Shown: one piece after another, positions 23,924 to 36,065 of the stretch
How positions within the stretch are numbered: position 1 is the stretch's first letter
How the letters are laid out: every line of letters begins with the position of its first letter
Assembly (NCBI GenBank): GCA_050248355.1
Contig: JBFWSN010000005.1
Span: 37,476 to 101,475 of the forward strand
Source of the DNA: Dehalococcoidia bacterium
Lineage (GTDB): Bacteria; Chloroflexota; Dehalococcoidia; UBA2979
Direction of reading: 5' to 3'
Length of the DNA stretch: 64,000 bases
Notes under the pieces: generated by a model
What the model saw: the letters and a program-made list of their open reading frames with translations, nothing else
What the model was told of the DNA's origin: nothing
Database searches by the model: none
Program-made: the position numbers and the translations under genes

Positions 23924-24079
23924 CGGCTATCCCTCACAGGATCCTTTTCCCGCCCACGTACAGAGGCCGCCCGTCGGTCATGCCGGCGGGGTGCGGCATC
24001 CTCATCCGGGCGGTGGCGTGTAGCGATGCCGGCTCGATTGTCAGGTGCCAGAGCGCTGGTCGCCACGACTCCGGGCGAG

Positions 24080-32898: not shown

Positions 32899-33174
32899 CT
32901 ACCCGCCCGCCACAGCAGGGACGATGGAGACCTCGTCGCCCTCCTTAAGGGCGCTGTCGAGGCCGCTCAGGAAGCGCACGTCCTCGCCGTTCACGTACAC
33001 GTTGACGAAGCGGCGCAACGAGCCGGAGTCGTCGCACAGGCGCTCGCGCATGCCCGGAAACTCGGTCTCGAGGTGCTGAACGAGCTCACCGAGGGTCGCG
33101 CCCTGGCCGGGTACCGTGTCGCGGTCGCCGGTGAGCGTGCGCAGCGGGGTGGGGATCTTCACGTTGATGGGCAT
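32899..33174 (-). CDS. MoaD/ThiS-family sulfur carrier protein (MetO-like), C-terminal GG
   Basis: Start at the internal MPINVKIPTPLRTL...FVNVYVNGEDVRFLSGLDSALKEGDEVSIVPAVAGG*. Last gene of the operon with the ThrC-like enzyme. Confidence 0.75.
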   Translation of the reverse strand: MPINVKIPTPLRTLTGDRDTVPGQGATLGELVQHLETEFPGMRERLCDDSGSLRRFVNVYVNGEDVRFLSGLDSALKEGDEVSIVPAVAGG

Positions 33175-33455: not shown

Positions 33456-34708
33456 GCACCTCCCACGCCGGCGCCGACCGCCTCGCGGCTGGCCAGCGCT
33501 TCATCGAACGAGGCCTGGTTCGCGGAGACGCGAAGCGGTGCGGTGAGCTTGCCCTGCACCGCCTCGATGGTCTTGAGGCCGCCGCCGGTGATGAAGGCGA
33601 CCGTTTCCTCGCCGCGGCGGATGGCGCCACTCTCGACGAGCCGCTTGAGGCACGCGATAGTCACGCCGCCGGCGGTCTCGGCGAAGATACCCTCCGTTTC
33701 GGCGAGGAGCTTCACGCCCTCGACGATCTCATCGTCGGTCGCGGCTTCGGACCCGCCCTGCGTCTCCTCCATCACCTTGAGTGCATAGTACCCGTCCGCG
33801 GGATTGCCGATGGCGAGTGAGCGGGCGATGGTGTTGGGCTTCTGCGGCACGAAGTTCAGCGTGTGGTTCTCGAAGGCGGTAGTGATCGGCGAACAGCCGC
33901 GCGCCTGCGCCCCCGACATGCGGGTGTGCGGCTCCTCGATGAGGCCGGCCTTGTGGAACTCCTGAAAGCCCTTCCAGATCTTGGTGAAGAGGGAGCCCGA
34001 GGCCATCGGGGACACAACGTGATCCGGGGCACGCCAGCCGAGTTGCTCGGCGACCTCGTAGGCGAGAGTACGGGATCCCTCGGCGTAATAGGGGCGGACG
34101 TTGATGTTCACGAAGGCCCACCGGCGCGAGCCGGCAACCTCGGTGCAGAGGCGGTTCACGTCGTCGTACGAACCGTCGACCATCACGAGGGTGGGGTCGT
34201 AGATCGCGCTCCCAACGACCTTGCCCTCCTCGAGGTCGTGCGGAATGAAGACGTAGGCCGGCATACCCGCAGCGGCGGCGTGCGCCGACACCGAGTTGGC
34301 GAGGTTGCCGGTGCTCGCACAGGCCATCGCCTCGAAGCCGAACTGGCGCGCACGGGCGATGGCGATGCTGACCACTCGGTCCTTGAACGACCAGGTGGGG
34401 TTCACCGTGTCGTTCTTGATCCAGAGCGTGTCGAGGCCGAGGCGCTTCGCCAGGCGGTCGGCGCGAATGAGCGGCGTGTACCCCGTGCCGAGGTCGACCC
34501 GGTAGTCCGGGTCGCACGGGAGGAAGGGCGCGTAGCGCCAGATGGTGGGCGGCCCGGCCTCGATGGAGTCACGGGAGACCGCCTCACGGATGCCCTCGAG
34601 GTCATAGGCGACTTCGAGGGGCCCGAAGCAGAACTCGCAGGAGAAGATGGGGTTGAGTGGGTACTCACGACCGCACTCGCGACAGCGCAGGGCGGATTCA
34701 AACGACAT
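33452..34708 (-). CDS. threonine-synthase-like PLP enzyme with N-terminal zinc ribbon (MetM-like candidate O-phosphohomoserine sulfhydrylase)
   Basis: 418 aa: N-terminal C-x2-C...C-x2-C ribbon and the PLP lysine motif SFKDR in a ThrC fold. Co-operonic with a MoaD-GG carrier and a NIL-like protein, and preceded by a SAM-I-like riboswitch. Confidence 0.85.
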   Translation of the reverse strand: MSFESALRCRECGREYPLNPIFSCEFCFGPLEVAYDLEGIREAVSRDSIEAGPPTIWRYAPFLPCDPDYRVDLGTGYTPLIRADRLAKRLGLDTLWIKNDTVNPTWSFKDRVVSIAIARARQFGFEAMACASTGNLANSVSAHAAAAGMPAYVFIPHDLEEGKVVGSAIYDPTLVMVDGSYDDVNRLCTEVAGSRRWAFVNINVRPYYAEGSRTLAYEVAEQLGWRAPDHVVSPMASGSLFTKIWKGFQEFHKAGLIEEPHTRMSGAQARGCSPITTAFENHTLNFVPQKPNTIARSLAIGNPADGYYALKVMEETQGGSEAATDDEIVEGVKLLAETEGIFAETAGGVTIACLKRLVESGAIRRGEETVAFITGGGLKTIEAVQGKLTAPLRVSANQASFDEALASREAVGAGVGGA

Positions 34709-34894
34709 CGTGTGGACTCCGGCGCGCCCGCTGGCGGGCGGCGTACTCGAACGCTGAGTGGTGCGTGGTGCAGGCCCGAGCCGCTAGGAGCGGTCGGGCC
34801 GTGGCATCGCCATGGCGCGCATCGAGGCGGCCCGTGCGGGCGAGGTGCTGAAGGGGCAGATGAGGTCAGTCGACATGTCTGGGGACGCCTTCGA

Positions 34895-35012
34895 TTTCAT
34901 CTCTCCCGGCGCGACGCCGCCGGGCCGGAATTGGCACCGTACCCACCCGGGCGAGGGGCGGCTCGGTTGCCGTGGTTTCACAGGGCCGACGCCCTCCACC
35001 ACTCTGGATGAA
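34895..35012 (-). promoter_or_regulatory. SAM-I (S-box) riboswitch aptamer in the 5-prime UTR of the ThrC-like gene
   Basis: The minus strand reads UUCAUCCAGAGUGGUGGAGGGCGUCGGCCCUGUGAAACCACGGCAACC...GGGUGGGUACGGUGCCAAUUCCGGCC...GCCGGGAGAGAUGAA. This matches the S-box blocks AGAGnGGnGGAGGGA, GGCCC-AUGAAACC, GGCAACC, GGUGCuAAuUCC and the P1-closing GAGAGAUGA. The ATG is about 185 nt downstream, with GGAG close to it. Confidence 0.75.
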
Positions 35013-35150
35013 CCGCACGAGTGGTCGTGCGTGCAGAGAGGCTAGAAGGCGGCGAGGCGTTCTGTCAATTGAAGCGTCCCGCCGGGCGTTTCGCCCGGGA
35101 GTAGTATGCGGACGCCTCGAAGCGAGGCCGGGCGAGGAAGGAGTTCCGCG

Positions 35151-36065
35151 ATGGCGATCCAGGTCGGGGACATGTTCCACGTGATCCACATGTACGACGA
35201 GCTGGGCCCGCTCGACGAGTGGTACGACAAGATCTTCGCGGTGAAGCGGAGCATGCATGGGAACTACAGCGAGGTGGAGAAGCGAGACGCCTCGCTGGCG
35301 TTCATCGCGGACTTCTGCATGGAGCCAATGGCGCCCTCGTACCGGGTGGAGGGCGCCGAGGAGATGCCCGTGGGGCGGTTCCACCGGCGCTTCGGGAACC
35401 GACTGCACTCGGTAGCGTGGTACATCGACGGCGGCTTTGCAGAGCTGTTCGGCAAGCTCAAGGACGGCGGTGTGCGGCTCTTCACCGACGGCGGTGGAGC
35501 GGCGACGTCGGCGGACAACCTTGTGGCCGCGGCGTTCACGCATCCCCGTGACACGGGCTGCCAGTGGGAACTCATGCCGCGCCGTGAGGGGATGAGCATC
35601 GGGACGGGCGCCATCCCGGGCTACGACGAGCGCTTCTGGCCAGAGGAGCACCCGCTGGGCATCGTGCCCCGCGCCTGGCACATCACGATGGCGGTGAACG
35701 ACCTCGAGCGAGGCAAATCGAGGTACGTGGACTTCCTCGACGGGCGGCTGCTGCACGAGGAAGAGAACCCGGCCTCGCGGACCCGCAGCGCGTTCATCGC
35801 CGTGGGAACGACGACCGTCATCGAAGTCGCGACGCCACTCGACTCGGATAGCCTGCTGGCGCGGGACCTCGAGCAGAACGGCGACATCATCCACTCGGTG
35901 ACGTGGGGCGTGAAGGACGTGGCGAAGGCCGCGCAGTTCCTGCGGGCGAATGGCGTGGGAGTCGAGGAACGGACGGCAGACACCTACCTGATGGACCCCG
36001 CCGACTCGTTCGGCGCGGTCATGTACGTGAGCCAGCGGCGCATCCCCGGTGACTCGCGCAGCTGA
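35151..36065 (+). CDS. two-domain VOC (glyoxalase/extradiol dioxygenase-like) family protein
   Basis: Start at the internal MAIQVGDMFHVIHMYD. Two beta-alpha-beta-beta-beta modules carry conserved His/Glu (HVIHM.., HITMAV..E). The overlapping antisense ORF 34866..35894 is Arg-rich and rejected. Confidence 0.75.
   Translation: MAIQVGDMFHVIHMYDELGPLDEWYDKIFAVKRSMHGNYSEVEKRDASLAFIADFCMEPMAPSYRVEGAEEMPVGRFHRRFGNRLHSVAWYIDGGFAELFGKLKDGGVRLFTDGGGAATSADNLVAAAFTHPRDTGCQWELMPRREGMSIGTGAIPGYDERFWPEEHPLGIVPRAWHITMAVNDLERGKSRYVDFLDGRLLHEEENPASRTRSAFIAVGTTTVIEVATPLDSDSLLARDLEQNGDIIHSVTWGVKDVAKAAQFLRANGVGVEERTADTYLMDPADSFGAVMYVSQRRIPGDSRS

Follow-up and report, generated by a model that had tools for sequence, protein, structure and literature searches.

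A SAM-I riboswitch aptamer followed by a methionine-codon leader ORF and a conserved hairpin upstream of a metM-like operon in Dehalococcoidia

Introduction

We analyzed the leader of a metM-like operon on the minus strand of a 64,000-nucleotide stretch of a Dehalococcoidia metagenome-assembled genome (MAG; contig JBFWSN010000005.1, positions 37,476 to 101,475), which is referred to throughout as the window. This leader contains an aptamer of the SAM-I (S-box) class of S-adenosylmethionine (SAM) riboswitches, and the aptamer is followed by a short upstream open reading frame (uORF) with clustered methionine codons and by a conserved hairpin. SAM-I is the textbook terminator/antiterminator riboswitch. 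A preliminary description of this locus, which was made from the sequence alone, recognized the aptamer and suggested that it sequesters the Shine-Dalgarno (SD) sequence of the downstream gene, as in high-GC Gram-positive bacteria. It made no mention of the 30-codon ORF that starts, with its own SD, right after aptamer helix P1, of the Met-codon cluster in this ORF, or of its stop codon in the hairpin loop.

Results

The metM-like operon and its relatives

The first gene of the operon encodes a threonine-synthase-family pyridoxal phosphate (PLP) enzyme, whose closest solved structures are threonine synthases. It is followed by a gene for a NIL-domain protein, whose start overlaps the metM stop by 4 nt, and by a gene for a ThiS/MoaD-type sulfur carrier, whose C-terminus reads ...VAGG and whose closest solved chain is CysO of Mycobacterium tuberculosis (3dwg_C, E = 1e-23). 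The combination that is expected of a MetM/MetO operon, a ThrC-family PLP enzyme beside a ThiS/MoaD carrier ending in Gly-Gly, was thus found. MetM has been described as a homologue of ThrC, "often misannotated" as threonine synthase, and MetO as a sulfur carrier, the two acting in a thiocarboxylate route from O-phosphohomoserine to homocysteine (GapMind 2026 preprint). The operon appears to match this route to homocysteine, and hence to methionine, and homology, gene context and the literature together suggest that its first gene encodes a MetM-type homocysteine synthase. The pairing of a SAM riboswitch with metM is not new, because PMC12172450, citing Hasebe et al., already reports such a riboswitch upstream of metM of Streptomyces albulus.

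To follow the leader through evolution, 80 related loci (given L numbers) were gathered by a MetM protein search, with one genome per species. The best MetM match, 99% identical, came from the Dehalococcoidia MAG JAWKPL010000001.1, and the host is therefore a member of the Chloroflexota rather than a high-GC Gram-positive bacterium. The metM-NIL-carrier operon was kept in 63 of the 80 loci, a NIL gene lay downstream of metM in 65, and the sulfur carrier gene was present in 77. The NIL gene was absent from the Actinomycetota loci. The features of the leader and the operon are collected in Table 1.

Table 1. Features of the metM leader and operon. Positions are those of the window, except where a related locus (L number) is named.
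Feature	Position	Strand	Basis or remark
Promoter -35 box, TTGACA	35063..35068	-	Conserved upstream of P1
Promoter -10-like box, TAGCCT, 18 nt after the -35 box	35039..35044	-	Conserved
P0, small 5'-terminal hairpin GCACGA-CCAC-UCGUGC	35015..35030	-	Predicted -7.1 kcal/mol
SAM-I (S-box) riboswitch aptamer	34894..35014	-	RF00162, 76.9 bits against a gathering score of 44.4 bits, full model
SD-like GAAGGCG of the leader ORF, 1-2 nt past the P1 3' strand	34886..34892	-	Nearly invariant in aptamer-bearing leaders
Leader ORF (uORF), 30 codons, MSTDLICPFSTSPARAASMRAMAMPRPDRS and stop	34784..34876	-	ORF reading and family conservation
Met-codon cluster, ATG CGC GCC ATG GCG ATG (M-R-A-M-A-M)	34805..34822	-	Family conservation
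Conserved hairpin GGCCCGACCGC-UCCUAG-CGGCUCGGGCC	34773..34800	-	Predicted -21.8 kcal/mol
C-rich, G-poor spacer after the hairpin	34741..34772	-	Base composition
Second small hairpin CGCCCG-CCAG-CGGGCG, just upstream of the metM SD	34725..34740	-	Predicted -10.3 kcal/mol
GGAG, metM Shine-Dalgarno	34717..34720	-	8 nt before the ATG
metM-like gene, threonine-synthase-family PLP enzyme with N-terminal zinc ribbon, 418 aa	33452..34708	-	Pfam PALP, E = 3e-68; NCBIfam thrC models
NIL-domain protein, 81 aa	33210..33455	-	Pfam NIL, E = 5e-14
ThiS/MoaD-type sulfur carrier (MetO/CysO-like), 91 aa, GG end	32899..33174	-	Pfam ThiS, E = 1e-21; NCBIfam SAMP1/MoaD
Aptamer-less module in related loci	L020, L022, L025, L033, L036, L037, L039, L042, L044, L045, L047, L049-L051, L053, L054		
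RF00379 matches in related loci	L023 5630-5765; L026 4428-4562; L027 4902-5037; L038 5471-5605		

The SAM-I aptamer

A scan of the whole window with Rfam 15 gave RF00162 as its sole match at gathering thresholds (E = 2.6e-16), and the match extended over model positions 1-108 of 108, without truncation, so that P1 through P4 were all covered. When a permissive scan (E<=10) was limited to the 551-nt leader region (34600-35150), the E-value of this match was 2.2e-18 and no second family appeared in it. The core blocks AGAGnGG, GGAGGG, GCCC, UGAA, GCAACC, GGUGCcAAuuCC and AGAUGA occurred in the correct order, both in the consensus alignment and in the re-read sequence. The preliminary description had assigned the element to SAM-I from the minus-strand S-box blocks AGAGUGGUGGAGGGC, GGCCCUGUGAAACC, GGCAACC and GGUGCCAAUUCC and a P1 closure UCAUC...GAUGA, and had placed it at 34895-35012. 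All of these blocks were found on that strand, its boundaries lay within 1-2 nt of the covariance-model match, and the covariance-model comparison that it proposed gave a full-length score well over the threshold and far beyond chance. The aptamer lies in the 5' leader of a metM-NIL-ThiS operon, and a scan of 70 related genome loci placed SAM-I at the same position upstream of metM in most of them. The identity of the element as a SAM-I riboswitch aptamer is virtually certain; it looks functional and is predicted to bind its ligand. Considered as an aptamer alone, it adds one more ordinary member to a known class and is a routine finding.

The expression platform of classical SAM-I riboswitches, i.e., a terminator/antiterminator or an SD/anti-SD pair competing with P1, was not found. 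In agreement with the preliminary description, which saw no U-rich terminator, there was no stem-plus-T-run site on either strand in the region 34300-35500. The absence of a textbook platform leaves the membership of the aptamer in its family untouched; it is the read-out that differs from the textbook one. The GGAG that the preliminary description saw near the ATG is present ahead of the metM start at 34708, and this proximity, along with the lack of a terminator, would suit a plain SAM-I riboswitch that controls metM directly by sequestering its SD, the leader ORF and hairpin being incidental. Such control would also resemble what is seen in the Acidimicrobiia/Actinomycetota loci (L066-L080). 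These lack a uORF, and their metM is directly followed by a ThiS-type carrier, without a NIL gene. Their leaders either are short, with a CCUCC element and a conserved CCGCTCGAGGCGCTCGAG block, or leave 5-6 nt between the end of the aptamer and the start codon (L069 and L077). A short leader with a CCUCC element is of the kind that the preliminary description had in mind, and the window has none. Instead, the aptamer in the window ends 185 nt from the metM start (related Dehalococcoidia leaders are typically 130-290 nt), and neither a conserved anti-SD pairing nor an anti-SD linked to the aptamer was found. Direct SD control also leaves unexplained an ORF that is in frame in every distinct leader, across many lengths, and an ORF-hairpin module that persists where the aptamer has been lost, as described below. 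We consider this explanation very unlikely, and the sequestration proposed in the preliminary description is not upheld.

The leader ORF and its methionine codons

When the related leaders were set side by side, their elements followed a fixed order: promoter, P0, aptamer, GAAGGCG, ATG, ORF, hairpin, C-rich spacer and metM SD. The reading frame of the ORF was assessed with two independent anchors, one on the P1-3'/GAAGGC motif and the other on the Met-cluster/hairpin motif. In all 51 distinct leaders, the first ATG after GAAGGC, which lies 6-13 nt after GAAGGCG in most of them, shared its frame with the Met cluster, and no stop codon intervened. The distances fell into 18 distinct length classes, each a multiple of 3, and at one chance in three per class the probability of this agreement is at most (1/3)^18, by our arithmetic below ~3e-9. 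The stop codon was TAG in each of the 51, while TAG ends 18 of the 40 long ORFs in the window.

The body of the ORF is unconserved in sequence and C-rich, being dominated by P, R, A, S, L, T and H (C-rich codons), and the predicted peptides range from about 11 to 43 residues. The end of the ORF is conserved and reads ...M-x-M-R(or P)-TAG. Methionine makes up 1.9% of the residues in the body, yet it is fixed at two positions of the cluster: M-x-M was found in every family member that has the module, with a third Met three codons upstream in 19 of 54 (35%). In the window the three ATG codons start at 34822, 34813 and 34807. The codon between the two methionines of M-x-M is free to change (V, A, D, M, L or S), and the Arg codon that follows varies synonymously (CGC, CGT or CGG). 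In the window, L001 and L002, the usual CGC-TAG has become CCA-CGG, and the frame therefore runs into the hairpin and stops in its loop (34786-34784 in the window). The TAG of most relatives stands immediately next to the hairpin, and the in-loop stop is a derived state common to these three. The recurrence of the motif is not circular, because the family was collected through MetM homology rather than by the uORF or hairpin motif.

Two hallmarks of leader peptides were therefore found, i.e., a short, conserved, in-frame ORF with its own SD and start codon (51 of 51 leaders) and clustered codons for the amino acid that is the end product of the pathway (the fixed M-x-M). These features argue that the leader ORF is real and regulatory, which we judge quite probable. 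Two other candidate frames were rejected. An in-frame ATG in the P1 3' strand (GATGAAC...) would be an alternative uORF start; it was in frame in about one third of the leaders, as expected by chance. A 72-aa GTG-initiated ORF at 34784-35002 on the minus strand is not a separate gene and merely represents the uORF frame, open backwards through the aptamer.

The same segment could in principle be a non-coding structured RNA, AUGGYGAUGCGCUAG plus hairpin, that binds a protein or senses a second ligand, with the frame never translated. The very high nucleotide conservation of the 15-nt block and the hairpin base would fit this idea, as would the complementarity that the block shows to the metM start region in 28 of 76 leaders and the replacement of the first AUG by GUG in L040. 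A non-coding element does not account for a frame that is kept through all 18 length classes with SD and ATG in place, for a middle codon that is free while the Arg codon changes synonymously, or for the window, L046 and L065, where the stop has moved and the frame nevertheless remains open into the hairpin; in addition, no Rfam family covers the region. This explanation appears quite unlikely. An arrest peptide of the TnaC or SpeFL type, whose nascent M-x-M-R/P would sense free methionine or SAM within the ribosome, seems unlikely as well. It would explain why the conserved residues stand at the extreme C-terminus, beside a conserved UAG and then C ahead of the hairpin, and why there are two to three regulatory codons, fewer than in most starvation attenuators. 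It is difficult to reconcile with the displacement of the stop by 4-9 codons in the window, L001/L002, L046 and L065, in all of which M-x-M is kept, and with the lack of conservation in the rest of the peptide, whose length of about 11-43 residues leaves little room for a defined tunnel-binding motif.

The conserved hairpin at the end of the ORF

The preliminary description had pointed to a hairpin GGCCCGACCGCUCCUAGCGGCUCGGGCC in the leader, and this hairpin is the one found at the end of the uORF. Every leader had a strong single hairpin at this place, with predicted energies of -18 to -37 kcal/mol in GC-rich leaders. Its base, GCCCG/CGGGC, is invariant, and the upper stems are wholly different between loci. 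In a register-fixed alignment of the seven basal pairs, pairs 1-4 never varied and pairs 5 and 6 covaried (A-U, G-C, C-G, U-A and G-U). The covariation score was 0.276, versus 0.070 in shuffled alignments; none of 500 shuffles scored as high, and the score collapsed once the partner columns were slid.

A strong GC hairpin directly after the uORF, in a high-GC genome with few canonical terminators nearby, might suggest an intrinsic terminator that lacks a U-tract and is antiterminated by the uORF whenever ribosomes arrive. We regard this as highly improbable. No U-run followed the hairpin in any lineage examined, and a distant relative (L079) uses a normal U-tract terminator, which lies after its aptamer. 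The logic would also be inverted, as plentiful Met-tRNA would presumably switch a methionine operon on.

Leaders with and without the aptamer

In at least 15 genome loci (Table 1), the promoter, SD, uORF with M-V-M-R-TAG and hairpin were kept without a SAM aptamer, and L065 carries a variant of this aptamer-less module. No SAM match at the gathering level was found in L020, L022, L025, L033 or L036, and a permissive scan found no match to any RNA family at E<=1 in L020, L025, L036, L045, L047, L053, L065 or L060; the remaining aptamer-less loci were judged solely by the missing P1 and aptamer sequence motifs. Remnants of the form GAUGA(A)CGAAGG persist in L020, L022, L025 and L047, which suggests that the aptamer decayed in lineages that kept the ORF-hairpin module. 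By these computations the module survives independently of the aptamer, and it would thus be autonomous.

A different arrangement was observed in low-GC relatives (L041, L052 and L055), which have the same promoter and a SAM-I aptamer with GGAGGCG adjacent to P1. Here the uORF has 25 codons (MDY[RYC]FYSF...KTEES and stop, at ~2411-2503) and lacks a Met cluster, and its stop codon adjoins the metM AUG (UAA-AUG or UAG-A-AUG), as in a relay of the termination-reinitiation type. This stop-start layout supports two parts of the relay model set out below, as it suggests that the target of the aptamer in this clade is the leader ORF and that its translation has a positive effect on metM.

A search of the window for the Met-cluster/hairpin-base module returned the known site and one match with a single mismatch, ATGAGGATGCCGCACCCCG at 23987-24005 on the minus strand. 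The latter is most likely a chance match, given that 4 of 100 shuffles gave two or more matches. The ATGGYGATGCGCTAGCCCG motif was also found on 37 metagenome contigs, and those matches with the full architecture lay upstream of metM or on contigs that end before the gene. About ten ATGGYGATGCGCTAGCCCG matches were in unrelated sequence with no metM downstream (L082, L083, L086, L091-L093, L096, L098, L099, L101 and L106).

Two further observations concern individual relatives. In L043 and L094, a tandem-repeat insertion of ~230 nt (CCTCGAAG-like and GACCCGGTCA-like units) lies between the uORF hairpin and metM and stretches the distance from uORF stop to metM to ~320 nt; the uORF, the hairpin and the GAGGAAGG SD are kept. 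In four related Dehalococcoidia loci, cyclic di-AMP (c-di-AMP; ydaO/yuaA, RF00379) riboswitch matches of 83-87 bits were found 2-3 kb downstream of metM (Table 1), and the window contains none.

Promoter and flanking elements

TTGAC[AG]-N15-20-TAG[CT]CT was found upstream of P1 in 43 distinct related leaders, and from this conservation we infer that TTGACA-N18-TAGCCT serves as the promoter in the window. A simple sigma-70 scan did not call the window promoter, because its -10 box is TAGCCT. Between the promoter and the aptamer, the related leaders have a P0 hairpin that is variable in sequence and always abuts P1 without a spacer (mean -13.4 kcal/mol in 43 leaders); possible roles are stacking on P1 and protection of the 5' end. 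A divergent glyoxalase/VOC-family gene lies upstream at 35106-36065 on the plus strand, where 35106 is the mechanical ORF start. An internal ATG of this gene, near 35151 (MAIQVGDMF...), has a GGAAGGAG SD in front of it, and the intergenic region with the riboswitch promoter is therefore probably ~440 bp.

Family-wide, the spacer after the hairpin is 44.7% C and 25.7% G (C/G = 1.74), as compared to C/G ratios of 1.48 in the uORF body, 1.16 in the metM coding sequence and 0.90 in the aptamer. It is also G-poor and unstructured in the low-GC relatives. The composition of the uORF body and spacer resembles that of Rho-utilization (rut) sequences at Rho loading sites, which suggests that Rho may act on this leader. 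A hairpin at the position of the second small hairpin was found in many, though not all, relatives.

Proposed transmission of the signals to metM

The elements described above led us to a reading in which the expression platform is neither a terminator nor a direct SD sequestor, but a relay through the translated leader ORF; we lean towards this reading, without placing it far above an even chance. With SAM bound, P1 would be closed and the leader ORF poorly translated, and the naked, folded, C-rich leader would keep metM off. With SAM low and Met-tRNA charged, the uORF would be translated briefly, followed by release of the ribosome, and metM would be largely off. With SAM low and Met-tRNA scarce, ribosomes would stall on the Met codons just before the hairpin and metM would be on. 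The stalled ribosome would relieve repression either by covering rut-like uORF RNA and blocking Rho, or by opening a helix that masks the metM start.

The geometry of the ribosome was estimated by placing its leading edge ~13 nt past the first nucleotide of the P-site codon. With a ribosome awaiting Met-tRNA at the cluster, the hairpin would remain folded completely or almost completely, while a ribosome at the stop codon would melt the conserved hairpin base and, in the window variant, the whole hairpin. Codon sensing is favored because of this difference, and we think it somewhat probable that the Met codons sense the charging of Met-tRNA.

Several routes by which SAM binding might reach the uORF SD were examined and rejected. 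Extension of P1 by CGCCUUC (35051-35045), which would pair with the uORF SD, was ruled out for the window because this sequence falls within the promoter, in the spacer that separates the conserved -35 and -10 boxes, and is absent from the transcript; a comparable P1 extension, GCCUU/AAGGC, exists in the L004-L007 group. Complementarity to the uORF SD in the 5' leader or P0 was not enriched (mean z +0.14), nor was an anti-P1 strand inside the uORF, which is UCAUCU in the window, enriched across the family (mean z +0.07). A thermodynamic comparison of 33 leaders with P1 forced or blocked showed no consistent shift in the accessibility of the uORF SD.

Downstream of the uORF, the pairings of a classical attenuator, i.e., of the hairpin 5' arm with the uORF body and of the 3' arm with the downstream leader or SD, gave mean z-values of ~0, and no covariation was observed between the hairpin 3' arm and the SD. 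The mutually exclusive 1:2, 2:3 and 3:4 hairpins of leader-peptide systems, which end in a terminator or SD sequestor, were thus not found. What was found is the single conserved hairpin, plus a lineage-specific helix between the Met cluster and the metM start. The complementarity of the Met cluster to the downstream leader exceeded that of shuffled controls (mean z -1.1, with 34% of leaders below -1.64), and 28 of 76 distinct leaders allow AUGGYG and the YRYC-AU of the metM start to form a helix of 6 bp or more. A GUG/CAC versus GCG/CGC association accompanied this pairing (permutation P ~0.03), and RNAalifold independently predicted a 9-bp Met-cluster:metM-start helix that encloses the hairpin in the L024/L028/L029/L030/L031/L097 group. 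Along with the C-rich, G-poor composition of the uORF body and spacer, this complementarity speaks for the repression step of the relay.

Several results weigh against the relay. No conserved pairing was found that is able to pass SAM binding to the uORF SD; the four-segment pairings of classical attenuators were not enriched; the Met-cluster:metM-start helix is absent in the window itself; simulated ribosome masks at the Met codons or at the stop left the accessibility of the metM SD unchanged, both in GC-rich leaders and in low-GC leaders, for which folding predictions should be cleaner; and in some low-GC relatives a single Met codon is present towards the end of the uORF. The steps of the relay differ in likelihood. 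That SAM gates translation of the uORF is a tentative proposal, just short of an even chance, and any one final step, Rho or masking of the start codon, is doubtful.

Discussion

The element in the window agrees with the SAM-I class in its full-length four-helix aptamer, its core blocks and its place upstream of a methionine-pathway operon. It differs in that the classical platform, a terminator/antiterminator or, in some species, an SD sequestor, was not found, and in that the ribosome-binding site of a leader ORF begins 1-2 nt after P1. Leader-peptide attenuators are known for the trp, his, leu, thr, pheA and ilv operons, and cysteine-responsive uORFs are known in mycobacteria. To our knowledge, no methionine-codon attenuator is known. 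In common with these systems, codons for the end product lie in a short ORF just upstream of a stable hairpin, the base of which would be melted by a terminating ribosome. In contrast to them, the present leader has no U-tract terminator, its 1:2 and 3:4 pairings are undetectable, and a riboswitch stands in series with the ORF.

Riboswitches placed ahead of uORFs have been described before. In M. tuberculosis, the ppe2 B12 riboswitch controls a uORF on which the downstream gene depends, an experimental precedent for a relay of this type (Kipkorir et al. 2024, PMC11260477). The metE and ppe2 B12 riboswitches of this species resemble the present leader in that a riboswitch precedes a short translated ORF that modulates a downstream gene (PMC11260477); they differ in ligand and aptamer class and are without a Met-codon cluster or conserved hairpin. 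The stop-start arrangement of L041, L052 and L055 resembles the termination-reinitiation proposed for ppe2 (PMC11260477). Direct reinitiation is unlikely in the window, because the uORF stop lies 75 nt from the metM start.

Leaders that respond to two signals include Salmonella mgtA, in which a Mg2+ riboswitch is combined with the proline-codon ORF mgtL and acts via Rho, and uORF/Rho systems include tnaC and toiL (PMC12360218; toiL, PMC12121999). Here, as in mgtA/mgtL, tnaC and toiL, an RNA that senses a metabolite and a uORF that would report translation or charging are flanked by C-rich, G-poor sequence, and the differences are that the uORF SD adjoins P1 and that a hairpin with an invariant base abuts the stop. 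The regulatory unit thus resembles riboswitch-controlled uORFs, leader-peptide attenuators and dual-signal leaders and fits none of them. A search of the full-text literature, the coverage of which is incomplete and which is therefore weak evidence of novelty, found no description of a Met-codon uORF, either alone or behind a SAM riboswitch. The novelty of the Met-codon leader module is accordingly probable rather than certain.

Taken together, the leader may represent an undescribed methionine-responsive, ribosome-mediated attenuator of the Chloroflexota, which stands alone in some genomes and in the window lies in series behind SAM-I, integrating SAM and charged Met-tRNA through one uORF. 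We regard this proposal as evenly balanced.

The interest of the locus lies in its read-out, in which a SAM-I aptamer would hand over to a Met-codon ORF and a hairpin with an invariant base across dozens of Dehalococcoidia/Chloroflexota genomes. The leader ORF is a small, translated-looking ORF of the kind that gene callers will miss, and the SAM riboswitch context supports assigning the downstream "threonine synthase" to the synthesis of methionine rather than threonine. If the proposed reading is true, this would be the first methionine leader-peptide attenuator of which we are aware and, with a codon-sensing uORF coupled in series to a riboswitch, a clear example from nature of the joint sensing of SAM and Met-tRNA. 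It would also provide a testable model for how riboswitches may act in high-GC, terminator-poor bacteria.

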